IMG/VR virus record: IMGVR_UViG_3300029288_000084
Span: 64,001-128,000 of that record
DNA length: 64,000 nt
Reading direction: 5' to 3' (one strand)
Source of the DNA: a virus
Taxonomy: Duplodnaviria; Caudoviricetes
Positions 4,386 through 34,072 of this stretch are shown one piece after another. The notes beneath the pieces were generated by a model, which saw only the letters and a program-made list of their open reading frames with translations, did not search any database and had not been told where the DNA came from. A program made the translations under genes and the position numbers. The first letter of the stretch is position 1, and each line of letters begins with the position of its first letter.

Positions 4386-4764
4386 TTTTAATCTCCTTTA
4401 TTTTCTCTTCATATTTTTTTGTCAAACTTTTTACAAGCATTGTTTTGGATCTTTTTGGTTTATTACTGCCTTCAATCTCTTTAATTGCAATATTTAACTC
4501 ATCTGTTAATTTTGTAATCAGAGTTTCATTATTTTCTTCTAAGAGATTTGAATAATCATTTTCTTTAATAGATTCTACTTTTTCAGGAACTGTTTCTGGT
4601 ACTTGAATTACAGGTATAATTCCAGGCAGTAACTTTAACATCGTAGGAAATTTATTCTCTAGTCCATCAGGAAGATTTATATTTTTACCTACAATGATAC
4701 GATAAGACATTTTATCATCGTTTAACAACCATTCGTAACTTACTTTGTTCCAATAATTTGCCAC
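4378..4764 (-). CDS. late protein sharing its N-terminal domain with the multi-glycosyltransferase at 31616..34072
   Basis: 24/44 ungapped identities between the two N-termini. Confidence 0.7.
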   Translation of the reverse strand: MANYWNKVSYEWLLNDDKMSYRIIVGKNINLPDGLENKFPTMLKLLPGIIPVIQVPETVPEKVESIKENDYSNLLEENNETLITKLTDELNIAIKEIEGSNKPKRSKTMLVKSLTKKYEEKIKEIKND

Positions 4765-4765
4765 A

Positions 4766-4993
4766 TTACCCCCTAAAATCGATATTTAGATCACCAAAAA
4801 ATTTTTTGAAACTATTTATAATCTCGCCATTTTTCATTCCGCCACAACGAAAATAGTCAGTAGTAAAATTGATAGAAACTCCTCCTTTATCCCTTTTAAT
4901 TGCTAATCGAGCATCAGAATCTTTATCTATAGTTACCCTTTCTATTGTTGGGTCAATCACACCTTCTTTTAACAACTCACTAAACTTTTCCAT
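4766..4993 (-). CDS. putative internal head protein (MEKFSELLKE)
   Basis: CTS-like leader, AGGAG SD, TATAAATA upstream. Confidence 0.65.
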   Translation of the reverse strand: MEKFSELLKEGVIDPTIERVTIDKDSDARLAIKRDKGGVSINFTTDYFRCGGMKNGEIINSFKKFFGDLNIDFRG

Positions 4994-5009
4994 TTATTTC
5001 TCCTTAATG

Positions 5010-5017
5010 TATTTATA
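5010..5017 (-). promoter_or_regulatory. T4-type late promoter TATAAATA
   Basis: Intergenic exact match; others at 7206, 10396, 16912, 23878, 37528, 46974, 54412, 59856, 62633. Confidence 0.75.
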
Positions 5018-5022
5018 AAACC

Positions 5023-5565
5023 TTATGTTGGTTCAACAGTTAAATCAAAACTATCAAATGAAAAAGAACAGTCACATGTTAAAATATCAGATCCAGCTTT
5101 AACTGAAAAGGATATTCCGCCAATAGAAACAGGGAAACAATCTATAAATCTAAAAACAACCTGATCATTTTTCTTATTAGTCAAAATATGAAGCTCACAA
5201 TCAGATTTTACCGAATTTACAAATGTGCTTATTTTTTCCATCTGTTGTTGTGCTGATAATTGCATAACGTCTGGAAGTACTTGTAATTCTTTTGTATATA
5301 ACATCCACTTATACAATTGTCTGTAATTTGATAATGTTTCATCTATTATGAATGTTACCCGGAGATCAGAAAATGATAAAGAGGATCCAATGTGTTTAAA
5401 TTCATAAAACGGTGTATGAATTCCAAATTTTCCAATTGATATATCAGGTGTTCCTACGTCTACAATAGAATAAGAAACCTCAGGGAATTTTTCAATTACA
5501 AAATAATGATTTTGCCCCGATAATTGGGCATTTAGATTTGAAGAAGAATTAATTAATTGACTCAT
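5023..5565 (-). CDS. gp3: tail completion / tube terminator gp3-like
   Basis: Tube-fold pattern: FSDLRVTFIIDE.L.NY..LY.WM, LHILTN, F.DCFPVSIGGISF. Confidence 0.8.
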   Translation of the reverse strand: MSQLINSSSNLNAQLSGQNHYFVIEKFPEVSYSIVDVGTPDISIGKFGIHTPFYEFKHIGSSLSFSDLRVTFIIDETLSNYRQLYKWMLYTKELQVLPDVMQLSAQQQMEKISTFVNSVKSDCELHILTNKKNDQVVFRFIDCFPVSIGGISFSVKAGSDILTCDCSFSFDSFDLTVEPT

Positions 5566-7190: not shown

Positions 7191-7205
7191 ATTTTCTCCA
7201 CTACA

Positions 7206-7213
7206 TATTTATA
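7206..7213 (-). promoter_or_regulatory. late promoter TATAAATA
   Basis: Immediately upstream of portal SD. Confidence 0.75.
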
Positions 7214-7218
7214 AGACA

Positions 7219-7875
7219 TTAAATTCTTTTCCTTGTAAATTTTTTCTTAGCTTCATTTTTTAATTTTCTAACCCTTTCTTTTTCTAACCTAATACTTTTT
7301 TGTATATTAGATTCTCGTTTAGGTGGTTGAATTCGATTTTTAACACGATGAAGAGATTGTAATTGATATTTCGTATCCTCGTAGGCCGTTTGAGCAGTAG
7401 CATCAATCCATTGTGCTCCTTCTGTTGTCATAGCATTGTACCATTCACGCCAATGTAATTCTACAAGATTGGATTTTATTCTTGATCTAATATATTTTCG
7501 GATAATTACCATGCCCTCTCTATACCATAAATTTGCTGCGTTCTTAATTTCATAATATGGTACGTGAGCTGGCAATTCTTTTTTGAGTAATTTGTAATTT
7601 TTAAGGATAATTTTCTTGATAAAATATTCTCTAGTTAATCTAGGAAGATAATGAAATGCTAAACCTAAAATATATTTTGAATCTACAGAAAGAACTAAAA
7701 TAATAGGAAAGGCATCATAGTATGCTAATTTACCTTCTTCATACATCTTACTATCATAATTGAAAAAATATATTTTTCCGGGGATGATATTTTTTGATCG
7801 ACCAGTTCTTAAGTTTTTTTCAGTGTATTTTTTCCAAAAATTTCTTTGTGCCTGCGTTATATTCAAATATGCCAT
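7219..7875 (-). CDS. gp2: DNA end protector protein
   Basis: PGKIYFFNYD.K...L.YYD.FP, GL.FHYLP motifs. Confidence 0.88.
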   Translation of the reverse strand: MAYLNITQAQRNFWKKYTEKNLRTGRSKNIIPGKIYFFNYDSKMYEEGKLAYYDAFPIILVLSVDSKYILGLAFHYLPRLTREYFIKKIILKNYKLLKKELPAHVPYYEIKNAANLWYREGMVIIRKYIRSRIKSNLVELHWREWYNAMTTEGAQWIDATAQTAYEDTKYQLQSLHRVKNRIQPPKRESNIQKSIRLEKERVRKLKNEAKKKFTRKRI

Positions 7876-10379
7876 TATGTGATTCCGTTATTGTTGTTTT
7901 TTCTCGTATATGGATCATCTAAATAAAAGCGATAATCAGGTTGTTGAATTACATTTGTTTGTGATATAATAGTTGGGCTTGCCTGTTGTTGATTTGGTTT
8001 TGTTGGTGTGGGGGTTGGGATATCTGTTACTGAAGCTAAAGTTGGTTGTGGCTTCCTAGCATTCTGTACATGCCAAGGTTCATTTTTTACTGGAGTATCT
8101 AAACCGGCCGATTCCATAAGTCCTAATCTCTTTGCTGTATTGATTTGTCGACTTTGTGCATCAAATGCTTTTGCTCCCTCGCCTCTATCTACGTGAGGAG
8201 ATCTATCTGGGGATGCAGCAAATTTATTTACTTTCTTTAACGCAGCTTGTTCAGCATATGTTCTAGCACCCGAATTTACTTGTAATTTTTCACCCGTTTC
8301 TTCTTTGTAATCAGTAGAAAGTTGAGCAAGATTTCCTTTAAGTCTGGGTTCTAAATTTTGAATATCAACATTTGGATTAGCTAGTGTTACATTATCTAAA
8401 GAAGTAGGAGATTCAGTAGCAGATGGGAGAATTATATTTTCGGTAGGTGCTTGAGGCATAGGTAAAGAAGGTGCATTTGCTTTGGGTATAGTTGGCATTG
8501 TAATAGATGCTTGCACTTGAGGAATTCCGCTTCTTTTCACTACTAAAAATTTCAACCACTTGTCTTGAAGATTCTTACCAGCTCGTCCAGTTCTAACTTT
8601 AGAGATCAGTCCATTTACTTGATCTTGTCTATTTTCATAATCAATATCTTTTGACAAACTTTCTTCTTGAGATCTTGTTATACCGTTTTGTTTTGCAAAT
8701 TCATTCCACAATCTTTGTCGTTCAGCAGATTTAGCTTTATTAACTCCTGTTGAGCCAACAATAGAAGCCATTTCTTGATCTTCAACACCCTGTTGCTTTT
8801 TCCATAAATGATTTAGAGTTAATCCCAAAGCCGCAATTGGTGCACCAAGAACTAAACCACCCCCAATACCAGCAGCTACGCCACCAACACCTGCATAACC
8901 AGAACCTGCTGCTGTAGCTGATGGTAACATTCCTTTTCCAAGATTTTTTCCTAATCCTAAAACTTTACTTAGTAAACTAGCCTTTCCAACTGTATCTAAA
9001 AGAGATGATCCCTTGCCTTCTTTATCAAGTGCAGCCTTTCTTTTACCAATACCTTGACTTTCCATGTAAGATTCAACATAATCGTGAATATCCATCAACC
9101 AAAAATCCCTATCTTCTACCTTGCGTTCTGAATAAACTCCATCCCAATTTTTTTTATAATCAACAAAATTATCCTTAAAATCTTCAACTAGTTTGTAAAA
9201 TTCTCCACCAGGGAGTAATGTACTAAAGAAATTTGACATAGCTTCTTCTTCGACAGGACTCATTTCTGTTGATGGCATTACAGAAGCAGTATAAAGAGGT
9301 CTTTCACCTCTAGCTGCTCCAAAATCTTCTGGCAATCCCAAACTTCCAGATTCTAATCCAAGTTCATCTTCTACACCAGCAGAGCTTGCCCTAATATCTT
9401 CCATCAAGGACTTTTCAAATTCGTCAGGTTCTTCAGCAGGTTCAACAACAGCTCGCTTTCTGTTTACAGATTCTATAAAGTTCTTTCTTCCTTCGGGGCT
9501 TTTTAATTCGCCAACTTTTTGCTCCATTTCAGTTAAAATAGGAGCCCATTTCTTTGGGTCATCTTTATTTTGTTCAAGGCGAAGAGTATATTCATTTTCC
9601 AATCTTTGTATTTCTTCATCTACTAACTGAGTTTTTGCTTTTTCAGATAATTTTTCAATCTTCTTTTTTTGATCGGGTTTTAATTTTTGACTTGATTTTT
9701 TTAACATCTCTGTATCAAATTCGTCCCCAACCTGATCTTTTGTTTTTCCTGAATACTTCTTTTTCTTTTCACTATAATATCTTTCTTTAGATTGATCATA
9801 TAATTTATCTTTCATTATACCTTGCATCAATTCTTTTTGTTGTAGAATTCTATGGGATTTAGCTTCTTCTTTCTGTTCCTTTCTTGCTTGTAACCACTGA
9901 GCTCCAATTATTAATGCAGGAGAATCAATTAAGACACCAGCTACACTAGCCATTGTAGCATATTTTCTTGACCCAGTAAATTGCTTTTTAATTTTACCTT
10001 TTACTGTTTGTTCAGGTGTTATAAGTTTTCCTGATTTTTTCTTTATTACACCTTTTCTTTGTTTAAATTCTTTCAATGCATTTGTATTCATAACAGTCAA
10101 CATATCATTTAGACTTTTGTATTCAACGTTTGTTAGTTGACCATTTGTATTTAATGCAGTAATTACTTTTCTGATATTTCGAATTGATTCCAAATTTTCT
10201 TGTGCATCTTCAGCTGTATTTGAAAGTATAATAGAATCAGCTAAATCATTCATTGAATCGGCAAGCGCGTATGCACCAGAAGAAAAATCATCTGGGTCTA
10301 CACGTTTTTTAGAAATGAGATTGAGTTTATTCCTCATTGATTTTTCAAATTCAGCTAATTTATTATTTTTATTGATCAT
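7875..10379 (-). CDS. tape measure / baseplate hub-like protein with C-terminal M15-type peptidase domain
   Basis: Long helical and Gly/Ala-rich protein after gp26/51; NSGART.AEQ..L, SPH, AFD, EPWH motifs. Confidence 0.7.
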   Translation of the reverse strand: MINKNNKLAEFEKSMRNKLNLISKKRVDPDDFSSGAYALADSMNDLADSIILSNTAEDAQENLESIRNIRKVITALNTNGQLTNVEYKSLNDMLTVMNTNALKEFKQRKGVIKKKSGKLITPEQTVKGKIKKQFTGSRKYATMASVAGVLIDSPALIIGAQWLQARKEQKEEAKSHRILQQKELMQGIMKDKLYDQSKERYYSEKKKKYSGKTKDQVGDEFDTEMLKKSSQKLKPDQKKKIEKLSEKAKTQLVDEEIQRLENEYTLRLEQNKDDPKKWAPILTEMEQKVGELKSPEGRKNFIESVNRKRAVVEPAEEPDEFEKSLMEDIRASSAGVEDELGLESGSLGLPEDFGAARGERPLYTASVMPSTEMSPVEEEAMSNFFSTLLPGGEFYKLVEDFKDNFVDYKKNWDGVYSERKVEDRDFWLMDIHDYVESYMESQGIGKRKAALDKEGKGSSLLDTVGKASLLSKVLGLGKNLGKGMLPSATAAGSGYAGVGGVAAGIGGGLVLGAPIAALGLTLNHLWKKQQGVEDQEMASIVGSTGVNKAKSAERQRLWNEFAKQNGITRSQEESLSKDIDYENRQDQVNGLISKVRTGRAGKNLQDKWLKFLVVKRSGIPQVQASITMPTIPKANAPSLPMPQAPTENIILPSATESPTSLDNVTLANPNVDIQNLEPRLKGNLAQLSTDYKEETGEKLQVNSGARTYAEQAALKKVNKFAASPDRSPHVDRGEGAKAFDAQSRQINTAKRLGLMESAGLDTPVKNEPWHVQNARKPQPTLASVTDIPTPTPTKPNQQQASPTIISQTNVIQQPDYRFYLDDPYTRKNNNNGIT

Positions 10380-10398
10380 TTAAATCCTCATTAAATAT

Positions 10399-11345: not shown

Positions 11346-11380
11346 AAACCTCCTATGTTAATATATATATAAGTGTATTC

Positions 11381-11911
11381 TTAAGCGTCTTTAAGTAAAT
11401 TTGTGATTTCAAAATCCCAATATTTAAATGTAACAGTAAATTGCATAGGCTCATCAACTTTCTCATAACCAAGACTAATATCAGCCAGATTTGTAGGATA
11501 AACTTCTCTTATTTTGTATTCTCTAACTGGTACTAAGGCTTTGTTAAGAATTGTAATAGCCATATCACAAACGTAATCTTTGTAATAGCTAACAGTAAAA
11601 GTGCTTTTATTTACAATCTGATCAATCCATTCTTCAAATGCTCTTCGAATTTTTAAATCTTTATCACAGATAAATGAAATTGTAATAGGATCAAAATCAA
11701 TTGAACTTGCAATATCTTTTTTCATCCCCCATAAAGCCATAGAATTAGTTCTTACTTCTTGTCCCGGGACATTTACAGAAGAAACAAGATATTTATATTC
11801 ATTATTGGGGAAAATAGATAGAAATTCTGTTCTAGTGAATTTAATGTGATAACGACTTGAAGAAGCTAACCCTTCAATATTTGATTTATAATCATCTACA
11901 GTATTAGACAT
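11381..11911 (-). CDS. tail tube-fold protein (gp54-like tube initiator)
   Basis: gp19-like fold motifs (SVNVPG, ITISFI.D, FEEW, VYPT.L.DI.L, FTVTF.Y), next to gp19. Confidence 0.75.
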   Translation of the reverse strand: MSNTVDDYKSNIEGLASSSRYHIKFTRTEFLSIFPNNEYKYLVSSVNVPGQEVRTNSMALWGMKKDIASSIDFDPITISFICDKDLKIRRAFEEWIDQIVNKSTFTVSYYKDYVCDMAITILNKALVPVREYKIREVYPTNLADISLGYEKVDEPMQFTVTFKYWDFEITNLLKDA

Positions 11912-11921
11912 AATACTCCTT

Positions 11922-11961: not shown

Positions 11962-12483
11962 TTAAATCTTAGCCCCTCTTGTTGTCTCAGATTCCCAGTA
12001 ATCATATGCGAAATTAACTGTATATTCTTCTGGAGAATCATTTGTATCCCAGTTTAATGCAATAGCACCACCAACGTTTGTTGGTATGCATCCAACCATG
12101 TGATATGTTTTGATAATATTGTGTTTACCATCGAGATGGTCAACACGCATATTTCTCTTAACATCATTTGCATTAATTGTTGAAATATTATCAACTGCTC
12201 CATTTACTAGCTCAGCCCACTCTTCCAGTTTCTTTCTGATTGTGAAGTTTAAATCGTTGTAAACTTCAACTGACCAATCATCGAAACTAGAATCTCCTGG
12301 AAAGACGATCTTTCTACCCATATAACCAACTTTGAAGTTGCCAATTGTTCTTGTTGGAACTTCAGAAGCTTTGCATAAAAACTGCATTATGGATTCACTA
12401 CCGGTTGGGAAAACAAGAGTGACTTGGAATAGATTTGGCCTAGATAAACTATTAACAGCTGACCTGAATCGATCTACATCCAT
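11962..12483 (-). CDS. gp19: tail tube protein
   Basis: RPNLF.V, FLCKA..VP, YMGRKI.FPGD..FDDW.V.VYND, AYDYW. Confidence 0.95.
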   Translation of the reverse strand: MDVDRFRSAVNSLSRPNLFQVTLVFPTGSESIMQFLCKASEVPTRTIGNFKVGYMGRKIVFPGDSSFDDWSVEVYNDLNFTIRKKLEEWAELVNGAVDNISTINANDVKRNMRVDHLDGKHNIIKTYHMVGCIPTNVGGAIALNWDTNDSPEEYTVNFAYDYWESETTRGAKI

Positions 12484-12573: not shown

Positions 12574-13926
12574 TTATAGAGTGATTGTGATCATCCTGTA
12601 ATAGAGTTCAGCACCGAATGGATTCTCGCCTAAACCATATCTGGTGTGGAACCAGATTCTGTTTTGACCATCTTCCTCACCAATGCCTTTCTTTACGTAT
12701 ACAGGAACATATGGGCAATAATATAAACCGGTATCCCACTCGCCGCCCTTGTAACCAATGGAAACGTAATCAGAAGTAGCGTACATATCGCAATAGACTT
12801 TGTACTTGCCACCTAAGGTTCCCATGAATGCATTGGCGCCGAGGTTGACATCAGCTAACCCACCAGAAACACCTTGACCAGCAGCGATCCAATGGCGCAT
12901 AGTCTCGAACTCAGAAATGACATCCAGAGATGCAACAATGATATTGCCGCGGCCTCTCATTGTGGTTTTTGCAATCTGGTTTGAAACTTTGTTGATATTA
13001 CCATACATTTCATAAGTACGTTCCATTGCCCATCTGCCAGGGGTACCATCGGTGCTGTAATTCCAAGAAGAAGTGCCACCTAGAGCAGCTTTCTCATTCC
13101 ACTTATCAAGGAACTTTTTGTTCATCTCAGCGATGATTTCCTGAGACATAATCTTGGTTAGCTCAGTATCGGCATCCAGATTCTGTTGAGCTTTTAAGTC
13201 CTGTTGGAGTTCATCAGTGTACTTAGCTTTTAGTTTGTAGCTATCAGCGGTAACTGTGGTTTTGAAGATGTCGAAACCAACTTCCTTGATGTTCTTTGCA
13301 GCAGCCTCAGCGAGTGCTACTGTAGTGAACTTTGCGTAATCCTTGAATAGGAACTTCCAGGCGATTTCGTTGGGATATACGGCAGAAATTGTGGTTATAG
13401 CAGTTGCATAAGGATCTGCATCATCAACTGCAGCAGCAGCTACAAAGGTACCAGAAGTCACATCTACTAACACTGTGTTAGTTTCAATGTAACGAATGAC
13501 GCCTACTGCAGGAGCAGCAGTTGAAATTGTGTCGCCAACAGAAAAGCCAGAAGCATCAGCTAGAACTAGGACAGTTGAAGTTGTGCGCTTGATGGCGTTG
13601 TTGGTATCATTATGATAAGAACTCTTTAAACCAAAGATCAGGCCCGAAGGACCGCTCATTGGCTGGGTACCATATAGATCCATACCGATTAGGTTTGGAT
13701 AACCCCTACGAATAACTGAAATCAGAACTGGGTCATATTTCTCAATATCACCAGTCTCTGTACGTTCTGTTAGTTTGTACTTACGGAAGTTCTCTAACAT
13801 TACGGCAACGAATTCTCTCTTATCCTGATTTTTGATTTCAGGAAAGCGAGAATGGTTTAGAATTTCGGCATAGCTTTCAGCCAAAAGTTCTTTGTTTGTC
13901 TTGACAATTTCTAAATTTTTATCCAT
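12574..13926 (-). CDS. gp23: major capsid protein
   Basis: DPVLIS.IRR..PNLI, GTQPMSGPSGLIF, ELQQDLKA, RGRGN, G.YYCPYVP, TRYG. Confidence 0.97.
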   Translation of the reverse strand: MDKNLEIVKTNKELLAESYAEILNHSRFPEIKNQDKREFVAVMLENFRKYKLTERTETGDIEKYDPVLISVIRRGYPNLIGMDLYGTQPMSGPSGLIFGLKSSYHNDTNNAIKRTTSTVLVLADASGFSVGDTISTAAPAVGVIRYIETNTVLVDVTSGTFVAAAAVDDADPYATAITTISAVYPNEIAWKFLFKDYAKFTTVALAEAAAKNIKEVGFDIFKTTVTADSYKLKAKYTDELQQDLKAQQNLDADTELTKIMSQEIIAEMNKKFLDKWNEKAALGGTSSWNYSTDGTPGRWAMERTYEMYGNINKVSNQIAKTTMRGRGNIIVASLDVISEFETMRHWIAAGQGVSGGLADVNLGANAFMGTLGGKYKVYCDMYATSDYVSIGYKGGEWDTGLYYCPYVPVYVKKGIGEEDGQNRIWFHTRYGLGENPFGAELYYRMITITL

Positions 13927-20075: not shown

Positions 20076-20380
20076 ATGTCAGAAATCAAAATCATTGTTT
20101 TAAAAACAGGTGAACAACTTTTAGCTAGGTTGAATATGGAGATGGTACAATTGTGATGGAAAAACCAGTTATGATGTTTCCTCTCCCCGGTAATAAGATT
20201 TCATTTAGAGATTGGATTATTGGAGCAAAATTAGATAAGGTAGCTGTTAAGAATGAAAATATCAATGTTGTAGTTGATCCTTCAAAAGAAATAGAAGATA
20301 TTTACGTTAGCAGTACTTCTAAAATTCAAGCACCGCCTCTTGGTGCGAAGATGTCTATTCTAGGAAACAAGCAATCTTAG
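20076..20380 (+). pseudogene. frameshifted gene of a small T4-like phage protein (Sm-like pattern)
   Basis: AGGAG SD then MSEIKIIVLKTGEQLLA; continues VEYGDGTIVMEKPV in another frame near 20127. Confidence 0.6.
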
Positions 20381-21816
20381 CCAATTCTAATAACTGATAG
20401 CATTTTTTCACTATCACCGTCATCATCATCCATAAGAGTTGCAGGTGAATTTTCCATACCATTTGACATTACTATAGCAGATACTTGGGAATCTATTTGA
20501 ACTTGATGTTCTTTTAAAAATTTCTCTCTAAAACTGATTGGCGCTTCTATGAATTCATCTAAAAACCCAGTTGATTGAACACAAGAGAAAAATACCAATC
20601 CCATAACCATATCATCGTGATAACCAGTTTCAGCTTCGTAACTGTTATTTTTTCTAACAAATTTATAAAATTCACTTATTGTATCAAAGTCATTGACTAT
20701 TAACTTTTCATATTCCATCAATGTTCTTAAATTGCCGCAGCCAACTCTTTTTGTTCTTGTTGTTGTTCTAAGTCCCAATTCTTTTTTATTTTGTTCCATA
20801 TAAAGCATAGAATCAGTTCCTATATCGTTAGCTAAAATATCAAGAACATCTTTTCCAAAACCTATGTTATTTTCAATGATAGTTAAAGTGTTCTCACCGC
20901 CGTACATTTTTATGAGTTCATCATAAATTGTTGCATAGTGTTGATATGGACATTCAGAATCTCGATAAGTTGCAACTTGTTCATATGGGCTTGTAGAAAG
21001 ATCAATAACAGAAATTGTATAGAAATCTTGTTTTTTACCTTCGCTTGGATCTCCAACTATAGCGTAGTAATGACCTGGTATGACTTTGCCCAATGCCTCA
21101 TCCTTTTTGAATAGTATTGGTTCTTGATAAATTTTTAACTTATCTTCATAGTAAGTTCGAATTGGAGTTTTGTGAGTTAATTCAGCTAGCTTTTTACCGC
21201 CAATTAAAGTGTCTGAGGAACCTAGAATTTGACAATCATATTCTTGGTTCCACATCATTTCGCCGATGTTGCTTATTGTTAATTTCTTAAATGCTTCATC
21301 TCTACCAGGAATTTCATTCCATGCAACTTTCAAATACTTGAATTGACTGCGACCTTCAACAGCTTCATTCCAGAATTTAGCAAAGTGATTATATCCAATT
21401 GGAGTGGATGAAAGTGTAATTCTTGAATGCTTGGCTGAAGAAATTGTAGGATAAATGGATGCTAAGAAGTCAGCAGCCATATTAGAATTTGTTTTTGAAC
21501 AATTGTGGCAAGTTATTCCATTGCCTATATAATGGTTTCCGTCCCGTACATTTAATAAATCATAGAAAAAATTCTCTTTTTTAACTTTTTCAATTTTTTT
21601 AATTCTTTTATTTTGAACTATATCTCCAATATTTAAATTTTTTGCTTTTACAAACATATTATTTTGTTTTATTTTATGTTCATTTGAACATTCAACTACA
21701 GTTTTATTATTAAAAATTATTTTTAGTGATTCATTTTTAATTGTTATACTTATACCATCAAAATCTTTCCAACCATTTTCTGTTAAAACTTCGTAATCAG
21801 ATGTTAATATTTTCAT
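20377..21816 (-). CDS. gp17: terminase large subunit C-terminal part, preceded by 105-aa split intein C fragment
   Basis: IntC: LTENGW, CS.EH, YDL, NGITCHN/C; extein: SSTPIGYNHF, QEYDC, ENN, HDDMVM. Confidence 0.95.
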   Translation of the reverse strand: MKILTSDYEVLTENGWKDFDGISITIKNESLKIIFNNKTVVECSNEHKIKQNNMFVKAKNLNIGDIVQNKRIKKIEKVKKENFFYDLLNVRDGNHYIGNGITCHNCSKTNSNMAADFLASIYPTISSAKHSRITLSSTPIGYNHFAKFWNEAVEGRSQFKYLKVAWNEIPGRDEAFKKLTISNIGEMMWNQEYDCQILGSSDTLIGGKKLAELTHKTPIRTYYEDKLKIYQEPILFKKDEALGKVIPGHYYAIVGDPSEGKKQDFYTISVIDLSTSPYEQVATYRDSECPYQHYATIYDELIKMYGGENTLTIIENNIGFGKDVLDILANDIGTDSMLYMEQNKKELGLRTTTRTKRVGCGNLRTLMEYEKLIVNDFDTISEFYKFVRKNNSYEAETGYHDDMVMGLVFFSCVQSTGFLDEFIEAPISFREKFLKEHQVQIDSQVSAIVMSNGMENSPATLMDDDDGDSEKMLSVIRIG

Positions 21817-22693
21817 TAATTTTTCTCATTAGTTTATTAAAAACTTCTTCTTTATTTTTGTAATAATCATGTTCCCAAATTTCTATTACTCTATATCCAG
21901 CAAAAATAGCAGCATTTACTTTTTTCTTCCAATACACTCTATATTCTTTGGGTGTTATACCTCTATGTTCTTTATTTTCATCCGGAAATAAACTTTCATG
22001 ATAATGCCAATATGTACCATTAAATTCTACAATTAATTTTAAATCTTTTATTGTAAAATCATAAGAGTAATATTTTGTTTTTTTATCAACATCATTGAGA
22101 ATAAATTCATTATTAAGTGGGTTAAATCTAACACTAGATTTTAATTTATTATCTAAAGCATTGTAAATATTCCAACTTAGTTCCTTATGCCATTTTGATA
22201 TACTATTCTGCGAAGCTTCTCTATTCATTATTGATTTTTCTGATTGGAAAGAATTTATAATTCCATACTTTTTTAATAAAGTATTTTTTCTTTTTTCTTT
22301 ACACTTTACACTTTTAGATCTTTGTGCAAGTATTTTGTTTCTTTCAATTACTTCATTTTTATGTAAAATATGCCAATTGTGAATTTTTGTTCTTTTTTCT
22401 TCTGTCCATAAATAAGAAGTTTTATCTCTACCTATAGTCCCTTCTTGATATGATTTAGTAATACATTCTAGTGAATTACACCTTTTAAAAAATCCCTTGT
22501 TAATACTAATAAATACTGAAGATTTATTACAATATTTACATTTAGGAATATTACTATGCAAAATATATTTTGCATAGTAATCTTTTGGTTGTATTGAATG
22601 TTTTTTAATATGTTTGGTAAAATTTGAATTTTTTGCATTTTTATAAAATATCTTACTACAAATTTCACAAGTTATTATTTGATTATTTTCCAT
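21797..22693 (-). CDS. free-standing homing endonuclease (Vsr / PD-(D/E)xK type) between split terL halves
   Basis: N-terminal Zn fingers; YDF...IVEFNGTYWH...GYRVIEIWE. Confidence 0.85.
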   Translation of the reverse strand: MENNQIITCEICSKIFYKNAKNSNFTKHIKKHSIQPKDYYAKYILHSNIPKCKYCNKSSVFISINKGFFKRCNSLECITKSYQEGTIGRDKTSYLWTEEKRTKIHNWHILHKNEVIERNKILAQRSKSVKCKEKRKNTLLKKYGIINSFQSEKSIMNREASQNSISKWHKELSWNIYNALDNKLKSSVRFNPLNNEFILNDVDKKTKYYSYDFTIKDLKLIVEFNGTYWHYHESLFPDENKEHRGITPKEYRVYWKKKVNAAIFAGYRVIEIWEHDYYKNKEEVFNKLMRKINENINI

Positions 22694-22694
22694 G

Positions 22695-23378
22695 TTATTT
22701 AATAAAAACTAAATGAGTTGTACCTATTAGTCTATTAGCAAAATCAGACATTTTAATGTTTTCTACAATTCCTGTTTTTTTATTTCTAACTGTAATAACA
22801 GTATTGCCTAAAAAACATTCATCCCAGTATAGATTTTTGATTGGGAAACCAGATAAAGCATCTTTTGATGTTGCAGCTGAAATAGATCTTGAACCATTTT
22901 CTAATTCAAAACCGCCTGATTGCCAACTAACAACACCTTGTTGCATCCAGAAAGGAAGACCCTGGAACATCTTTTGCATAGTAGAAATAATTTCAAAGGC
23001 TGTCTTCTCTTTGTTAGCAACAATACCACAAATTTCATAAGGAAAGAAATTCATCAAATAAGTATAAACACCCGATGTAACAGTTGTTTTACCTGATTGT
23101 CTTGGATTCATGAAGATGTTAAAACGATTCTCCATCATCATGTTGATCATAGTTGTTTGATATGGTCTGGGTTCGAATAAAACCCATTGTCCAGAATCTA
23201 ATGACAATGTTTTTAAGTAAGTTTTAAAAAAATAGTGAATTCCAGTCTTTGGTTCTTTACATTTTCTAATTTCGTCCAGTTGGTATTGGCTGTAAGGAAT
23301 TTCAATTCCGGCTTTACGAAGGTTGAATTTTCCCTGAAAATAATCAGTTTTTTGAGGTTGATATACTATTTCATCCAT
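22695..23378 (-). CDS. gp17: terminase large subunit N-terminal part with 40-aa split intein N fragment
   Basis: PYQ, RQSGKTT Walker A, ELENGS, YWDE then CFLGNTVITV. Confidence 0.95.
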   Translation of the reverse strand: MDEIVYQPQKTDYFQGKFNLRKAGIEIPYSQYQLDEIRKCKEPKTGIHYFFKTYLKTLSLDSGQWVLFEPRPYQTTMINMMMENRFNIFMNPRQSGKTTVTSGVYTYLMNFFPYEICGIVANKEKTAFEIISTMQKMFQGLPFWMQQGVVSWQSGGFELENGSRSISAATSKDALSGFPIKNLYWDECFLGNTVITVRNKKTGIVENIKMSDFANRLIGTTHLVFIK

Positions 23379-23896: not shown

Positions 23897-24079
23897 TTAT
23901 TCATATTCTTTTAATTCTAATTCTAATTCTTTCATTTTCTTTTGATATTTTTTTCTCTCTTCATCACTTAAATTTTCAGCTGTTAATGCTTGTTGAGTTG
24001 CTTGTATTTTCATATAAATATTATGTTTTTCATCCCAATTTGATTTTACTTCGTTTAATAATTTTTGAAATTTTTTCAT
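23897..24079 (-). CDS. putative internal head protein (MKKFQKLLNE)
   Basis: CTS-like leader. Confidence 0.6.
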   Translation of the reverse strand: MKKFQKLLNEVKSNWDEKHNIYMKIQATQQALTAENLSDEERKKYQKKMKELELELKEYE

Positions 24080-24897
24080 TCTGGTTTGTCCTCCGTTACT
24101 ACTGTTGTTTTACCTTCTTGAATATTTGTTCTTGTAATATGCCAATCATCACCTTCTTCAGCTTCCCAAGGAATGACTTCTTGTTCCTCTTCCCACCAAG
24201 TATATGGATCAGCTGAATCTAAATCATCGATATCTCGAATTTTCATAATAGTTTTTTTGATAATACTAGACTCAACATTCTGTTTGTAAAGATATCCTTT
24301 CAATGTAAATGACAAATCCCATTGAACAATTCGATCTCTTGTATCTTCACCTGATTCTAATTGCAAATTGTAATTAGGACCACTTGTCAAATCAACAGGT
24401 GTCACCCTCTTGATTCCAAGTGTAGGCATTTCATTTACTGAAATCATATATGTTGGATCAAAGAAAGGACAAATTTGTTCGATCAGTTGTTGACAATCAG
24501 ATTCATTGACAGCCCACATAGCTAACGAATATGAAAAGTTCCAAGGTGATGGTTCAAAAAATCTTATCATCTTGTCAGGATCTGTTACAGTAGGATCAGC
24601 TACTCTGTATGCATTTTTTAGATTCTTTTTTCTACTTGGATCTGGACTGAGATTTGTCAAAATAAAAGACATTCTTGGAAGAAGAATTGAAAATGGATCA
24701 TTTTGCTTCTCAGCATATTGTTTTAACTGTTCATAAAATTTGCGTTTAGAAGCCTGAATCAAGGGAACTTTTATTGATTGAGTTTCAACTACACCATAAG
24801 GATCAGCTCTCTGAACATAGAGATTAGAGAAAATTGTACCAAATGCAATTGCATATCGGCGAATGATTCCGTGATAAAAATAAGTTCCTGCTAACAT
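24076..24897 (-). CDS. gp15: tail sheath stabiliser / tail terminator
   Basis: YFYH..IRRY..AFG..F, IKVP, LPRMSF, Q.IEQI.PFF.P. Confidence 0.93.
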   Translation of the reverse strand: MLAGTYFYHGIIRRYAIAFGTIFSNLYVQRADPYGVVETQSIKVPLIQASKRKFYEQLKQYAEKQNDPFSILLPRMSFILTNLSPDPSRKKNLKNAYRVADPTVTDPDKMIRFFEPSPWNFSYSLAMWAVNESDCQQLIEQICPFFDPTYMISVNEMPTLGIKRVTPVDLTSGPNYNLQLESGEDTRDRIVQWDLSFTLKGYLYKQNVESSIIKKTIMKIRDIDDLDSADPYTWWEEEQEVIPWEAEEGDDWHITRTNIQEGKTTVVTEDKPE

Positions 24898-26799: not shown

Positions 26800-26828
26800 T
26801 TTTTATTCTCCTTTAAAAATATATATAA

Positions 26829-28149: not shown

Positions 28150-28315
28150 TGTTCTCCCTTAAAATATCAGATAATTCTAGTAATTTGTTATTGTGCATAT
28201 AAACGGTTTCTTTTGTAATTAGAATTGTTTGTCTATCATCATATGGTTGTATTTCTGCAAAATTAATTTGCAATTTTCGCATTTCTCTTGCAACATATTC
28301 TAATACTTCTTTCAT
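28124..28315 (-). CDS. hypothetical protein
   Basis: ORF behind late-promoter-like TATATATA. Confidence 0.45.
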   Translation of the reverse strand: MKEVLEYVAREMRKLQINFAEIQPYDDRQTILITKETVYMHNNKLLELSDILRENIDGNAKSN

Positions 28316-28346
28316 ATAAAATATATATAAGAGTTAAGAAAAATTT

Positions 28347-28931: not shown

Positions 28932-29016
28932 CTATTAACAAAACCCATTTTATGTGGTTTACACATTTTACAAGATCTTTTTTTATGTTTATATTTACTA
29001 TCTCTATTTATTCCCA

Positions 29017-29742: not shown

Positions 29743-30007
29743 TCAACCTAACCCATTCTTCTTTATTTTTATCCCATTCTCCAACAAAACAACTACCATA
29801 TAATTTATATCCATCTTTAATTGCATCTAAAAATAGTTGCCAATCACTTTTCCTTTCTACATTATTTAAAGTAACGATGGGAGGAAATGGTTTTGGGTTA
29901 GGCAAGCTTTCTCGATATTTGATAAGTTCGCGAAGTGCATCATTAAAGTTTCCATTAAAATCATCTGGCAATAAAAAATACATCTGATCTAAACTTAAAA
30001 CTTTCAT
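29705..30007 (-). CDS. hypothetical protein
   Basis: AGGAGG SD. Confidence 0.6.
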   Translation of the reverse strand: MKVLSLDQMYFLLPDDFNGNFNDALRELIKYRESLPNPKPFPPIVTLNNVERKSDWQLFLDAIKDGYKLYGSCFVGEWDKNKEEWVRLNDKINNKANDPQ

Positions 30008-30023
30008 ACAAACCTCCTTTGAT

Positions 30024-30539
30024 TTACATACTTCCTGAAACGCCTTTTTGTACTACCATTTCAAAACTATATATATCGATTGAATCAACTTGATAAACAA
30101 AAGTGACATTCTTAATTTTGTTTTGTAAAATATCCTTAACATAGTAAAAATCAAAATTTTCAATTTTATGACTTTGATTATATGGTTGATGTGTTTCTAA
30201 GCAATGTTTTCTATATTTTTGTTCAATAGGACAATATAAAATTAAACGACCATCTAATTTCAATACACGTAACCATTCTCTCAAAACCTTTTCTGTGTCT
30301 ACAAAATCTTCAAGCAAATGACTTGAAAAAACATAGTCCAAACTATTATCTTTGAACCAGTATAAGTTACTTGCATCACCCATTAAATTTTGAGGATGTT
30401 TACCAACATGTGTGTAAGGTTCAGTTAGATCAACGGTTATAGCAGTTGGAATAATTGGATCTCCACCATAACCTAAATCTAAACCATTACCAATACACCA
30501 GCAAGCCAAACGCTTTCTACATTTTTCTGTTTCGCTCAT
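30024..30539 (-). CDS. class I SAM methyltransferase
   Basis: GLDLGYG, DYVFSSHLLED, EWLRVLK.DG.L. Confidence 0.88.
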   Translation of the reverse strand: MSETEKCRKRLACWCIGNGLDLGYGGDPIIPTAITVDLTEPYTHVGKHPQNLMGDASNLYWFKDNSLDYVFSSHLLEDFVDTEKVLREWLRVLKLDGRLILYCPIEQKYRKHCLETHQPYNQSHKIENFDFYYVKDILQNKIKNVTFVYQVDSIDIYSFEMVVQKGVSGSM

Positions 30540-30798
30540 TTGTTTCCCTCTTTAGTGGTTCAATTTCCCAACTATACGAACAGCATTTACAATTACAGTG
30601 AATAGTATCTTTTTTATAAATTGCATAGTCATTGAAAAAAACAACAAACTCATTTGATCTATTTATTACACCATTCAGACTTTTAATACGAGCTATTTCT
30701 TTTTCTGGATTTGGATGTTTCGAATAAAATTGATAATAAACATCTTTTGACCCACACATAGGGCATGGTGTTTTGCAAGGAAGAATTTTTTTGCCCAT
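30517..30798 (-). CDS. small zinc-ribbon protein
   Basis: CPMCGS ... CKCCSY. Confidence 0.55.
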   Translation of the reverse strand: MGKKILPCKTPCPMCGSKDVYYQFYSKHPNPEKEIARIKSLNGVINRSNEFVVFFNDYAIYKKDTIHCNCKCCSYSWEIEPLKRETNERNRKM

Positions 30799-30929
30799 GT
30801 TAAAACCACGGTTTTAATGCCCAAATAATAGCCATAGCAACACATTTTACTGCTATTAGCAACATAAGTGCAAGTATAATTATTGTGATTATAGCAACAA
30901 CAATTTCCTTCATTGTTTCTTTCATTTTA

Positions 30930-31619
30930 TTACTCCCTTTCTAAAATCCAACAAGACCTAGGGCCAGCTTCACAGAATTTGTCTTTATATATTGTTGCCT
31001 TTACTTTTAGTTTGCAGATTTTAAATAATTGTTCAATACTTTCATGAGTCATCCAAAAAGAGTATTCATTGTTTTTAGCACCGCCTGGATCTGACATTCC
31101 ACTTTCAGGATAAAATGTGCCATTAAATGTGGTGTTGAATTCTTCCATTATACCATTAATTTGAGTTTTTGGGTTTGCAGTATGAGTTTCTAGAACTAGA
31201 TATTCTGAAAAATGTTTTGTTAAATCCATTAAATGTTTCATAGGATTATGAACATGATAAAATACGCCTGAGTGAAAAATAATATCCCATTCTTTATCTT
31301 GTGGCAAATTTTCAATATCACCAAGTATAAAATTTATTCTATTCATATTACAACCAAGAGAAAAACATCTAGCAAAACCCATGGCGAGATTTGATGCTCT
31401 ACAATCAATAGAATCTATATTATCTGCATTCATATATGCTAAAGAAACTGTGATATGCCCATCTAAAGTTCCAACATCTAAAACAGATTTGTTGTAAAAA
31501 GAAATAATCTTAGATGCTTCTTCAACACGACAATCCAAATCAGTAATTCGTAAAGGAATGCGCCAATCAAAACGTTGCTCTAATTCAACTATTTGTTCTT
31601 CGGTTAAAATGAATTTCAT
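30930..31619 (-). CDS. class I SAM methyltransferase
   Basis: VLDVGTLDG, WDIIFHSGVFYH..NP, LVLET. Confidence 0.85.
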   Translation of the reverse strand: MKFILTEEQIVELEQRFDWRIPLRITDLDCRVEEASKIISFYNKSVLDVGTLDGHITVSLAYMNADNIDSIDCRASNLAMGFARCFSLGCNMNRINFILGDIENLPQDKEWDIIFHSGVFYHVHNPMKHLMDLTKHFSEYLVLETHTANPKTQINGIMEEFNTTFNGTFYPESGMSDPGGAKNNEYSFWMTHESIEQLFKICKLKVKATIYKDKFCEAGPRSCWILERE

Positions 31620-34072
31620 TTCATCTCCTGTATTGCTCTATCTACCGCACTTTGTAACATTTGATGTGTTATCATTTCCATACACATATATTTTTTATCA
31701 CGTACACAATCAGCTGGGAAAATTCTAGGTGCTTTTTGCCAATGTTGACAACCTAAACACTTCAACCATTCAACAACTACGGGGAATGTTTTACTACTGA
31801 CGACTCTGTATTTTGGGTCTATCATTCCAAAAGGTACAACAGATGGAATATCAAATGCTTGTGCAATGTGCCAAGGCCCACTATCTAAACCTACAAATAT
31901 TTTTGCATTCTTCATAATAGAAACAAGATCACTGTAAGATGTGTTTTTTACATTGATATCTGAATTTAGCAAATATTTGCTGCCCACTTCTAAGATACTG
32001 AACCCTTTATTTCTTAAGTAATTTGTAATAAATCGAAATTTGTCTAGCGGTAATGCCCTACTATCCCAACCTCTTGTTGGTTCACAATGAACAACAGCTA
32101 CTCTTTTATCACCAAATAAATTCTTTATTTTGGTTTCACTACTTGCATTGGGATATAAATACAATCTTTTTTCATTGCTAACACCACATACTTTCGAATA
32201 AATATCTATAACGTGATTTTGTGGTTCCTTTTCATATGCCATATCCAAATCGAAAAATTTATCAAACAAACGATCATCTACTTCATCAGCAGTATTTGTG
32301 TACTTAACATCTGGATTCCCAACATAGATTTCAGGGTTCTTTGTTTGAACAGTAATTTCAGATAAGGGGTATTTTTGTTTCAAGCGATGAAGAACCCCAG
32401 TTGATAAAATTTCATCACCTAAAGCTCCACGTCTTTTGAATAATATTTTATAGTTGAAATTTCTGTTTTTGAAATAATAATCCCATCTCTGTTTAACAAA
32501 ATATTTGTTTTTAGCTTCATAACCGCGAACATCAATATCCAATTTACCCATCGTTGAAGAACGATGGTGCTTAATCGGTAAAGCCACAACTGCTATTTCA
32601 TATCCTCTTTCTCTCATTCTAAGAGAAAAATCTGTATCTTCGCAATAACCAAAAGATAGAACTTTATCATCAAACAATCCGTATCTTTTGACTAGTTGAT
32701 TTTTAATCATAGCACAAGACATTTCAATATATTCAACTTGACCATTAAAGAATCCTGTGCCATTGTTGTCTAAAGCAGCAGGATTTTGTTTCAAACCTAC
32801 AATTGCCATTTTTGGATTTGATAGAAATGGTCTTTCCATTTCATGCAGCCAATGTGGACAAACTTCTAAATCGTTATTTAAAATAACTAAATATTCACCA
32901 GAAGCAATTGAAGCATTGTAATTTTGAGGAGTCATAAACCCTTGATTTTCTTTTGAATAAAGAATTTGCACATTTGTATTATTTTGTAATTTTATTTTGA
33001 GTTCTTCCAAATAATTTTTTGTTCCATCTGTACTGTTATTATCAACGATGAGAAGTTCGAAATTTTTATCCATACCAAATTGAGTAATTACAGATTCGAG
33101 GCATTTTTTTGTCAATTCAACATGATTATGACAAACCATACTAATACTGTATTTTATCTTATTTGAAGAGGCAGTTGGAACAATTACAGAATGGTTTCTA
33201 TACTCGATAGTTTCATGTGAATGAATAATCTTGTATTTTTTGGATTGTATATTTTTTTCATGATTTACTTTGGTAAGCCCTTTCATTCTTGACATCATAC
33301 AATCAATTTCTTTAAACTTGTAACCAGCGTCTAGAATTCTTCTACACAAATCAACATCCATGAATACCATTGGGTATTTTTTTGCATCATATCGAATTTT
33401 CTTTATTACTTCTGTGTATGCTATAAAGATGCCGCCTTGGATATGTGGGCCAGTTTCTTTTGAAATTGTACCACCAATTGCATATTTGTTTTTTAAACCA
33501 GGTTCCTTCATTTCTTTTATCAAACAATTCAACCAGTTTTCATCGTATATGTAAGTGTGTTTTGTACACAGATAAACAAATAATTCAGTATTGCAAGCAT
33601 CTAAAGCTTTATTCATAGCCCCAGACAGAAGTTGCTTGTTACAATTTTGCAATAATGTAACATTCGGAAATCTAGATTTCAGTTTTACAACTACTTTTTT
33701 AACATAATCTATTTCTTTATTGTCGGTATTATTATCAACAATTATAAATTTTAGTTTTTCAAAATTATAATCCGTTTTTACAACTTGATTAATTATTTCA
33801 GAAAAACAAGATTTACTTTCCTGATTGGTAACCATAATAGTTGTAATACAATCACTACTCACAAGACTCACGGGATCGGTTTTTGTATGACACGGTGCTG
33901 CTACTGGAATATCCACAGTAATAGTTTTCTTTCCATATTGTTTTAACATTTTTTTGAATTTATCTTCTAGATCTTCTGGTAGATTTTTATTTAACCCTAC
34001 AGCAATTCTGTATGTACCACTTGTGTGATTCAAAGTCCATTCATGTCCAAGTAAATTGTAATAATCAGCCAT
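31616..34072 (-). CDS. multidomain glycosyltransferase (GT2-like + GT2 + GT9) with extra N-terminal domain
   Basis: IIVDNN; LIVDNNSTDGT, LNND, YCEDTD; RGALGD, GLDSGPWHIA.A..IP.V..FG. Confidence 0.9.
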   Translation of the reverse strand: MADYYNLLGHEWTLNHTSGTYRIAVGLNKNLPEDLEDKFKKMLKQYGKKTITVDIPVAAPCHTKTDPVSLVSSDCITTIMVTNQESKSCFSEIINQVVKTDYNFEKLKFIIVDNNTDNKEIDYVKKVVVKLKSRFPNVTLLQNCNKQLLSGAMNKALDACNTELFVYLCTKHTYIYDENWLNCLIKEMKEPGLKNKYAIGGTISKETGPHIQGGIFIAYTEVIKKIRYDAKKYPMVFMDVDLCRRILDAGYKFKEIDCMMSRMKGLTKVNHEKNIQSKKYKIIHSHETIEYRNHSVIVPTASSNKIKYSISMVCHNHVELTKKCLESVITQFGMDKNFELLIVDNNSTDGTKNYLEELKIKLQNNTNVQILYSKENQGFMTPQNYNASIASGEYLVILNNDLEVCPHWLHEMERPFLSNPKMAIVGLKQNPAALDNNGTGFFNGQVEYIEMSCAMIKNQLVKRYGLFDDKVLSFGYCEDTDFSLRMRERGYEIAVVALPIKHHRSSTMGKLDIDVRGYEAKNKYFVKQRWDYYFKNRNFNYKILFKRRGALGDEILSTGVLHRLKQKYPLSEITVQTKNPEIYVGNPDVKYTNTADEVDDRLFDKFFDLDMAYEKEPQNHVIDIYSKVCGVSNEKRLYLYPNASSETKIKNLFGDKRVAVVHCEPTRGWDSRALPLDKFRFITNYLRNKGFSILEVGSKYLLNSDINVKNTSYSDLVSIMKNAKIFVGLDSGPWHIAQAFDIPSVVPFGMIDPKYRVVSSKTFPVVVEWLKCLGCQHWQKAPRIFPADCVRDKKYMCMEMITHQMLQSAVDRAIQEMK

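Follow-up and report, generated by a model that had tools for sequence, protein, structure and literature searches.

The question raised by this locus is why a small late protein encoded among the neck genes and a large glycosyltransferase encoded in a separate glycan unit of the same phage should begin with the same domain. Both genes lie in the window, the whole 64,000-nucleotide stretch of DNA that was analysed; they are referred to here as ORF128 and GT818 (818 aa), and their common domain as the N-module.

The N-module and the neck-gene locus

ORF128 is encoded in a compact group of late genes, with the following features.

5010..5017, minus strand: T4-type late promoter TATAAATA, 24 nt before ORF75
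4766..4993, minus strand: ORF75, CTS-like small protein, first gene in the late mini-operon
4813..4820, minus strand: second TATAAATA late promoter, 56 nt before ORF128
4378..4764, minus strand: ORF128 (type A), a small N-module protein made late; residues 1-45 form the N-module (nt 4630-4764), residues 46-67 a flexible Pro/Val/Ile linker and residues 68-127 a helical hairpin whose turn reads KPKRSK
4038..4385, minus strand: ORF115, CTS-like small protein between ORF128 and gp13, overlapping its neighbours by 8 nt and 1 nt
3310..4038, minus strand: homologue of gp13 (neck/head-tail adaptor); in all relatives the small N-module genes sit directly upstream

The preliminary description of this DNA had placed ORF128 in a late unit between CTS-leader genes and next to gp13, and this placement holds: two small ORFs with T4-CTS-like N-termini flank the gene, the TATAAATA promoters are present, and a true gp13 homologue is one gene away. 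The start codon of ORF128 is GTG, preceded by the ribosome-binding site AGGGGG.

The N-terminal ~45 residues are common to ORF128 and GT818 (BLASTP, 26/60 identical, E=8e-14). Both ORFs are as previously described, and their N-termini align without gaps at 23/44 identities, or 24/44 when the GTG start is read as Met; a Val/Ile/Pro-rich stretch, also claimed earlier, indeed follows the module in each protein. The module starts with M-A-D-Y-F-N and ends with K-F-P/K-x-M-L. At the DNA level the two copies are 58% identical, third codon positions agree in only 17/44 cases and 13 identical residues are specified by different codons, which indicates conservation on the protein level rather than a recent copy.

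Structure prediction of ORF128 with AF2 (19-sequence alignment) gave a pLDDT of 96-97 over residues 1-45, with 4-5 strands and a short helix, followed by a low-confidence linker and then the helical hairpin. As modelled, the N-module is an autonomously folding beta-domain of ~45 residues, previously undescribed; it is not hydrophobic in character.

Like the T4 CTS, the N-module would be an N-terminal address on late proteins that otherwise have nothing in common, and CTS-like genes adjoin ORF128. The module might be read as a signal by which small proteins and enzyme alike are loaded into the head and later injected, as are T4 Alt and the internal proteins. Its strictly N-terminal position, the flanking CTS-like leader proteins, the late promoters and the basic C-terminal tails of several small N-module proteins would suit such a role. 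However, the CTS is an unfolded leader of ~10 residues that is cleaved at L/I-x-E, whereas the N-module is a folded domain of 45 residues, and alignments of 19-22 sequences show no L/I-x-E protease site conserved where the module ends. We regard loading into the head as very unlikely, and a further point against it comes from the gene order of a relative described below.

Distribution of the N-module and its small carriers

An exhaustive profile search over 1.84 billion proteins yielded 15 true matches to the N-module, all beginning at residues 1-8 and all from relatives of this phage, a small group of uncultured T4-like phages; one further candidate, P0018, is a repeat protein and was rejected as a false positive. 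The carriers are of two kinds, small late proteins (95-183 aa) and large glycan enzymes; the profile search for fusion partners that the preliminary description had called for thus found glycan enzymes as the only large partners, in three architectures. The whole 152.9-kb record holds only two copies. The distant gp13-bearing phages L049-L051 are without the module, which marks it as lineage-restricted.

Word-indexed searches with ORF128 and with residues 1-60 of GT818 recovered only the queries themselves, tblastn with ORF128 matched none of 50,697 GenBank phage records, and a 'longer' search with the 19-sequence alignment found nothing, a weak negative as its results were swamped. The module showed no Pfam, PHROG, PDB or fibritin similarity; its profile against PDB sequences and the Atlas look-alikes gave nothing usable, and in wide fold searches (Foldseek PDB, BFVD, VIA-align) the matches were taken up by the C-terminal helical hairpin rather than the N-module.

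About 12 positions of the module are conserved and are the same in the small and the enzyme-fused classes, at ~50% identity and with many synonymous differences. No targeting role at all would be needed if the module were just a stable N-terminal cap for folding or solubility, or a cassette for translation start that recombination has spread. Such a role-free module would fit a docking partner that is only putative, the want of a known fold relative in searches dominated by the hairpin, and a tree of 22 modules that gave no resolution on whether the enzyme-fused copies form one clade. The ~12 positions kept in both classes, the glycan enzymes as sole large partners and the retention of the module through a cassette swap (see below) nevertheless indicate a specific, selected function, so that we give the absence of targeting only a slight chance.

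In each phage examined, the genes of the small carriers are late ones that sit among the neck genes and are coupled to them. They are usually coupled to the gp13 gene itself: in 7 loci the small N-module gene lies directly upstream of gp13, either overlapping it or with a CTS-like mini-gene in between, and in several phages the small genes have TATAAATA in front of them. Long linkers rich in Pro/Thr/Ser, or PVEPAPVI repeats, occur in many of the small proteins. G000 and G001, both of the long contigs available, each contain one enzyme fusion and one small N-module protein; this co-occurrence is a count of two genomes, the other contigs being fragments.

The small proteins could be partners, regulators or acceptors of the enzymes, with modules pairing as homo- or hetero-oligomers; the small protein would recruit, scaffold or compete, and its Pro/Thr/Ser/Val-rich linker may be a glycan acceptor. 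The presence of both module forms in G000 and G001 and the long linkers and repeats are in line with this, as are a class-specific Lys in the enzyme-fused modules at the place where most small proteins have Pro, and the edge-to-edge pairing that a beta-rich module as modelled might allow. The linker of ORF128 is, on the other hand, almost free of Ser and Thr, oligomerisation is itself putative, and such pairing does not explain why the small genes are invariably coupled to gp13. This relation between the two carriers is unlikely in our judgement, and it overlaps with docking since the small protein could itself be neck-bound.

Glycan enzymes behind the N-module

The enzyme-fused copy of the window heads GT818, which lies in a long minus-strand unit with these features.

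37528..37535, minus strand: late promoter TATAAATA, heading the long unit with the glycan genes
37434..37464, minus strand: middle-type promoter TACTAAAT-N17-TATAAT, directly before ORF 36990-37427; a terminator separating this promoter from the glycan genes was not detected
34629..35117, minus strand: ORF162, conserved companion
34065..34625, minus strand: ORF186, companion gene conserved in three loci, where it lies upstream of the fusion; MptE-like/DUF115 structural look-alikes, a lead only
31616..34072, minus strand: GT818, GT2-GT2-GT9; N-module nt 33935-34072, then linker
about 33578-33844, minus strand: GT2-like domain 1 of GT818
about 32795-33148, minus strand: GT2 domain 2 of GT818
31619-32455, minus strand: GT9-like GT-B domain of GT818 with a conserved four-Cys cluster
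30930..31619, minus strand: SAM methyltransferase, 229 aa, overlapping the GT818 stop
30024..30539, minus strand: SAM methyltransferase, 171 aa
29017..29742, minus strand: DUF707 protein, 63% identical to its counterpart in the L008 locus

The triple architecture proposed for GT818 was confirmed above the Pfam gathering scores. PF00535 matched two GT2 stretches, about residues 77-165 and 309-426 (102.8 bits, cut-off 23.3; seen again in the genome search), and PF01075 matched a GT9 stretch at 711-757 (28.9 bits, gathering score 22) that covers only 47/247 profile positions. As read from the sequence, domain 2 has L-N-N-D-L-E after the fourth strand, where an acidic metal/nucleotide motif of the DxD type is expected. 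Domain 1 has C-T-K-H-T there, as does P0012, and may for this reason be atypical or non-catalytic. A likeness of the Cys-rich GT9-like domain to the protein heptosyltransferases TibC/Aah was considered and dropped, the PDB search having returned only WaaC at E=0.87. The structural look-alikes of ORF186 in the Atlas are MptE-like clusters and a 751-aa viral GT2 cluster (TM 0.73-0.76); against Pfam (PF01973, MptE-like/DUF115; Maf, WaaZ) it had no match. A Rosetta-stone link between ORF186 and P0015 was likewise set aside (BLASTP E=1.0, hhalign 0.2%) and is left as an Atlas structure lead. The cluster also contains a small membrane peptide ORF.

Three unrelated architectures occur among the large module carriers, those of GT818/P0012, L008/L017 and P0015. 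Their catalytic bodies are GT2-GT2-GT9, methyltransferase-GT-GT, and a region without family assignment followed by GT2; the L008/L017 fusion combines glycosyltransferase and methyltransferase. The L008 locus is syntenic with that of the window: ORF162, ORF186, the DUF707 gene and a lysozyme-like gene are 49-63% identical. The two fusions have only the 44-aa module in common (57% identity). The enzyme body has been swapped and the module kept.

Directly downstream of the fusion in G001, and within one late unit with it, lie sugar-nucleotide and tailoring genes of the same orientation. The enzyme should accordingly be active in the cytoplasm, late in infection. These donor-sugar and tailoring enzymes are without the module, which also counts against loading of the enzyme into heads, since an enzyme so served should work in the producing cell.

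The targets offered in the literature for glycosyltransferase clusters of aquatic and T4-like phages are DNA, host surface or virion, mostly without evidence (PMC12801897, PMC12619734). Modification of DNA would have the enzymes decorate modified phage bases, with the N-module and the basic small proteins binding DNA or the replisome. The glycosyltransferases of DNA-hypermodifying phages are diverse, according to work cited in PMC12619734, and the glycan unit of the window has a middle-type promoter as well. Against this, the 85%-complete record has no gene of the thymidylate-synthase or hydroxymethylase families, the operon containing P0015 is headed by the late promoter TATAAATA, and GT-A/GT9 families together with coupling to neck genes are a poor fit. 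A DNA target has a very slim chance.

Remodelling of the host envelope, a late change of LPS, capsule or another host glycan with the N-module binding a host or membrane factor, could for example keep progeny from adsorbing to debris. GT2 and GT9 are families typical of polysaccharide and LPS synthesis, and the named families nearest to the GT818 domains are polysaccharide and LPS heptosyltransferases, although every such match, RfaQ/heptosyltransferase models included, scores far below the equivalog cut-offs. A role at the cell surface is also what the literature usually ascribes to cyanophage glycosyltransferase clusters (PMC12801897), and the membrane peptide ORF could be counted in its favour. 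The module is, however, not hydrophobic, its small carriers are late genes bound up with the neck genes throughout, and the phage is lytic and T4-like. We consider an envelope target quite unlikely.

A possible docking role at the phage neck

The reading that we prefer, with a probability approaching an even chance, is that this lineage has, in the N-module, a domain of its own for docking at the particle or neck, by which exchangeable glycan enzymes are recruited. The preliminary description had proposed a virion- or prohead-docking module; targeting of glycan enzymes to a phage structure is retained, and the prohead is not favoured over the neck. Docking is suggested by the strict N-terminal position, the glycan-only large partners, the body swap, the co-occurrence in two genomes, the operon coupling of the small genes to gp13 and the late promoters before both gene kinds.

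In the mechanism envisaged, the N-module would be the N-terminal targeting domain of one lineage of distant T4-like phages, with one or two small late module proteins made from the gp13 operon, directly upstream of gp13, and with glycan-enzyme catalytic bodies as exchangeable cassettes behind the module. Since the same residues are conserved in both kinds of carrier, both most likely bind one and the same phage partner, and gene position and operon coupling point to the neck ring of gp13, or to some other site on the particle, as the most plausible candidate. The flexible linker would tether the enzyme to assembling particles late in infection, where it could build a (methylated) glycan on virion proteins, helped by the co-transcribed MptE-like ORF186, the DUF707 protein and the methyltransferases, and in another phage by sugar-nucleotide enzymes. 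The binding itself, gp13 or the neck as partner and a virion protein as acceptor are all parts that we infer.

T4 fibritin offers the closest positional parallel. Its N-terminal domain binds the gp13 dodecamer and is required for attachment to the T4 particle (PMC12929629; PMC3004832). The T4 gene order is 12-wac-13-14, and the small N-module genes directly upstream of gp13 occupy the slot of wac; the general build, an N-terminal anchor, an extended linker and a helical C-terminus, is also alike. The N-terminal domains are nevertheless dissimilar in sequence (hhalign probability 0.6%, and no fibritin among the PDB profile hits), and lineage gp13 is ~67 residues shorter where T4 has the fibritin-binding domain III, both of which speak against neck docking. 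T4 fibritin is, moreover, a segmented trimeric coiled coil of 487 aa with a foldon, in contrast to small carriers of 95-183 aa with a two-helix hairpin (AF2) or a basic tail, and the N-module also sits on enzymes. We know of no fibritin anchor on enzymes. Further points to the contrary are the middle-type promoter of the window's glycan unit and its distance of 27 kb from ORF128, and the homology of GT818, which gives no acceptor. The DPY tripeptide that had been invoked for virion glycosylation is indeed enriched (13 observed, 1.7 expected), but nothing connects it with the enzymes.

Tailspikes and depolymerases of the P22/Sf6/HK620 type have a conserved N-terminal particle-binding domain and exchangeable catalytic C-termini. 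The N-module is likewise kept before unrelated catalytic bodies in syntenic loci (window and L008), with P0015 as a third architecture. Its cargo differs in being nucleotide-sugar-dependent synthetic enzymes, which work only inside the cell, whereas tailspikes are extracellular, glycan-degrading receptor-binding proteins; it is also found on small non-enzymatic proteins, and its presence in the virion is putative. Chlorovirus PBCV-1 A064R combines glycosyltransferase and methyltransferase activities in three domains and acts on the capsid protein. This multi-domain viral enzyme resembles the L008/L017 fusion in build and belongs to a eukaryotic virus; no shared docking module is known to us for it. 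In mycobacteriophages, phage-encoded glycosyltransferases are likewise proposed to decorate virion proteins. There they are free-standing (Freeman et al. 2023, as summarised in PMC12619734), the glycans are carried by capsid and tail-tube subunits at their C-termini and no docking module is described, whereas here they are fused to the module and virion glycosylation is putative.

The most specific form of the idea, a plug-in address system in which a fibritin-slot anchor binds the gp13 neck ring and mounts exchangeable multi-enzyme glycan factories on assembling or finished virions, is possible but doubtful. Were it true, no machinery for virion glycosylation would be known before it that has a docking code dedicated to it, and none at all outside actinobacteriophages. 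A module shared with a neck-operon protein is a concrete, testable handle on the function of glycosyltransferase clusters: the 45-residue domain can be fused to a reporter for partner fishing, and nature offers three enzyme cassettes for comparison. Docking, if true, would explain how cytoplasmic glycan enzymes are directed by a virus to its own particle, and would provide a compact tag for cargo display or recruitment on T4-type necks.

The shared N-terminal module

The two proteins reported in the preliminary description to have a common N-terminus are both encoded by open frames:

4378-4764, minus strand: ORF128, a small late protein gene
31616-34072, minus strand: GT818, the gene of the 818-aa GT2-GT2-GT9 protein

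ORF128 starts with GTG, preceded by the ribosome-binding site AGGGGG. The N-termini align without gaps (BLASTP, 26/60 identities, E=8e-14), which bears out the proposed relationship. The DNA of the shared stretch is 58% identical over 132 nt, only 17 of 44 third codon positions match and 13 identical residues are specified by different codons; the sequences thus indicate that the module is conserved by selection at the protein level, and exclude a recent duplication. The conserved residues of the module are M-A-D-Y-F-N, a Trp six positions later, and then Y-R-I-x-x-G-x-N-x-x-L-P-x-G-L-E-x-K-F-P/K-x-M-L, and exactly two copies are present in the 152.9-kb virus record.

Pfam recognizes two GT2 stretches and one GT9 stretch in GT818 and has no match to its residues 1-60, while ORF128 belongs to no family in Pfam or PHROG. 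The module itself has no family in Pfam, PHROG, NCBIfam or PDB, and no glycosyltransferase docking domain in phages was described in the literature searched. It is classed as a new domain family, and its arrangement would be a variation on a known principle, in which an N-terminal module binds the particle and the cargo behind it can be exchanged.

The ORF128 module folded alone gave a poor prediction. AF2 with a 19-sequence alignment gave a pLDDT of 96-97 for residues 1-45, with predicted strands at 2-6, 12-16, 19-23, 26-31 and 43-45 and a helix at 35-38, followed by a low-confidence linker (residues 50-67) and a confident helical hairpin (residues 68-127). Fold searches of this model returned matches mostly from the hairpin and were uninformative on the module, whose profile also gave no usable match to PDB sequences or in the Atlas look-up.

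Small carriers beside gp13

The window phage is a distant T4-like myovirus, its portal being 39% identical to cyanomyovirus portals. The minus-strand gene order is sheath, gp21 protease, scaffold, capsid protein, two tube-like genes, hub, an 834-aa protein, gp2, portal, a third tube-like gene, ORF75, ORF128, ORF115, a gp13 homologue, UvsY and UvsW. Both ends of the 242-aa 'adaptor' match T4 gp13 (E=2e-10), and in relatives the protein carries the precomputed Pfam label Phage_T4_gp13; the earlier placement of gp13 (neck protein) near ORF128 is therefore confirmed, with ORF115 intervening. Every locus of sufficient length (the window, L006, L007, L010, G001/L045, L052 and L054) has the small gene between gp13 and the portal-proximal tube-like gene; there is either an overlap of 1-8 nt with gp13 or a single intervening mini-gene, itself overlapping, that resembles those with a capsid targeting sequence (CTS). 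Four phages have two small genes in tandem: type A encodes about 140 aa, with a helical hairpin whose turn reads K-x-K-R-S-K, and type B about 110 aa.

Other features, here and at other loci, were observed as follows:

window 4038-4385 and 4766-4993, L006 2211-2444, L010 7026-7325, L055 1247-1540: flanking CTS-like mini-genes
window 5023-5565, 11381-11911 and 11962-12483: three paralogous tail-tube-family genes (phrog_45)
L006 2444-3172 and 3989-4765: two ORFs, GIY-YIG homing-endonuclease-like by eye, flanking the gp13 gene
L045 9928-12279, L010 594-3257, window 7875-10379: a 780-890-aa protein upstream of gp2
window 20377-23378, minus strand: terminase large-subunit region, apparently interrupted
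window 21797-22693: a 298-aa ORF with homing-endonuclease PHROG matches, with a terminase fragment (20377-21816) on one side and further ORFs on the other

The T4 CTS leader is M-K-T-Y-Q-E-F-I-A-E, and the leaders of the mini-genes, e.g. M-x-x-F-K-E/D-L-L-x-E, are similar to it. The mini-gene separating the small gene from gp13 is kept in several relatives; in L006, one GIY-YIG-like ORF is inserted exactly between this mini-gene and gp13. The portal-proximal phrog_45 gene adjoins the small genes in all relatives and may encode a tube or neck terminator. The 780-890-aa protein, which may be tape-measure-like with a lytic domain, has a terminal VanY/M15-type peptidase-like motif in G001 (the phage record encoding the carrier P0015) and L010, and in the window a weak endolysin PHROG match only.

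The annotated T4 gene order is 12, wac, 13, 14, wac being the fibritin gene. Twelve fibritin trimers are anchored on domain III of the gp13 dodecamer by way of their N-terminal domains (PMC12929629), and particle attachment depends on the N-terminus of fibritin (PMC3004832). By this order and mode of attachment, the small proteins hold the slot of fibritin and share the logic of its N-terminal anchor. However, the small proteins are no homologues of fibritin (hhalign probability 0.6%), they are short and without the long coiled coil, and the gp13 of this lineage is about 67 residues shorter than that of T4, in a region that includes domain III.

Enzyme partners and expression

A HMMER search of 1.84 billion representative proteins with a two-sequence profile of the module gave 16 matches at E<=0.001. 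P0018, a repeat protein, was rejected as a false positive; in every other match the module starts at residues 1-8. The carriers comprise 12 small proteins (95-180 aa) and two long ones, P0012 (824 aa), which is 60% identical to GT818 across its entire length, and P0015 (745 aa). Further carriers came from DNA-pattern scans of IMG/VR and a metagenome collection, filtered with the module HMM: L008 (812 aa) as the third long one, a fourth that is truncated (L017), and additional small ones. The HMM search for fusion partners suggested earlier thus returned glycan-modifying enzymes as the long partners; every long carrier is a predicted enzyme of this kind, with three unrelated bodies.

The first body, GT2-GT2-GT9, occurs in GT818 and P0012; its GT2/GT9 homology in GT818 is generic, far under every equivalog cut-off. 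In P0015, the module is followed by a region without assignment and a strong GT2 domain, and the genes after it encode radical-SAM/SPASM proteins, methyltransferases, a kinase and a Polysacc_synt_2 / RmlD-type / Epimerase_2 trio. The third body, in L008 and L017, has a methyltransferase-like domain and two GT-A-like regions, as read from the sequence, paralogy with an upstream ORF and weak NCBIfam matches. Synteny between the window locus and that of L008 takes in ORF162, ORF186, the DUF707 gene and a lysozyme-like gene (49-63% identity), yet the match between GT818 and the L008 fusion is confined to the first 44 residues (57% identity), which indicates that the enzyme body has been exchanged behind a retained module. 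ORF186 adjoins the fusion in three loci; its structural look-alikes in the Atlas are MptE-like/DUF115, a link for which sequence tests were negative.

Further observations, in the glycan genes and elsewhere, are:

31619-31740: C-x2-C ... C ... C cluster ending the GT9-like domain at the GT818 C-terminus
30799-30929, minus strand: mini-ORF of ~41 aa with a single hydrophobic membrane-like segment, in the 131-nt gap between a methyltransferase and ORF93, inside the glycan cluster
28932-29016, minus strand: short basic Cys peptide K-R-S-C-x-M-C-K-P-H-K, in the gap that follows DUF707, conserved in the syntenic locus (L008 6390-6614)
62648-63574, minus strand: free-standing GT2 gene (308 aa, 87.6 bits to PF00535) without the module

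Conservation of the Cys cluster between GT818 and P0012 suggests a metal site.

In the window, L006, G001 and L055, the T4-type late promoter TATAAATA lies 23-36 nt ahead of the small genes or of the mini-operons that contain them, and one-mismatch versions occur in other loci. In G001 (115.9 kb), it stands 23 nt before the first gene of a three-gene operon containing P0015. Two elements head the long terminator-free unit with the glycan genes:

37528-37535: TATAAATA
37434-37464: middle-type promoter of this phage

Expression of the fusions is accordingly predicted to be late, and that of the glycan unit of the window phage probably also middle. Both long records, G000 (the whole record of the window phage) and G001, combine a single enzyme fusion with a single small protein, the latter in the gp13 slot (n=2).

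A candidate address domain

The strict N-terminal position, the flexible tether, the same conserved positions in both classes of carrier, the limitation of cargo to glycan enzymes, the cassette swap behind a kept module and the co-occurrence are as expected of an address domain that would bring different cargos to one partner. In the module tree the branching is ambiguous; in no case does an enzyme-fused module pair with that of the small protein from its own phage, and at a position that is Pro in most small proteins all five enzyme-fused modules have Lys. In G001, donor-sugar genes lie directly downstream of the fusion, co-oriented within one late unit, which argues for action of the enzyme in the producing cell during assembly and not after injection. 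Glycosylation of DNA as the function of the enzyme is weakened, since the 85%-complete record has no gene of the thymidylate-synthase or hydroxymethylase families.

The tripeptide DPY, associated with these enzymes in the preliminary description, is indeed enriched in minus-strand proteins of >=90 aa (13 observed, 1.7 expected; maximum 6 in 500 shuffles), mostly after acidic residues; no evidence was found linking it to the enzymes. It occurs in the capsid protein, gp13, the 834-aa and 1305-aa tail proteins, baseplate-region proteins and others, the genes concerned lying at:

12577-13926
3313-4038
7878-10379
48002-51916
24079-24897
and others

The gp13 site is kept in L006, L007 and L010 and is missing at that position in G001.

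As an address domain, the module with its flexible tether would bring a glycan enzyme to a common phage partner, for which the neck is the best guess, given the analogy with fibritin and the coupling of the small genes to gp13 in one operon.
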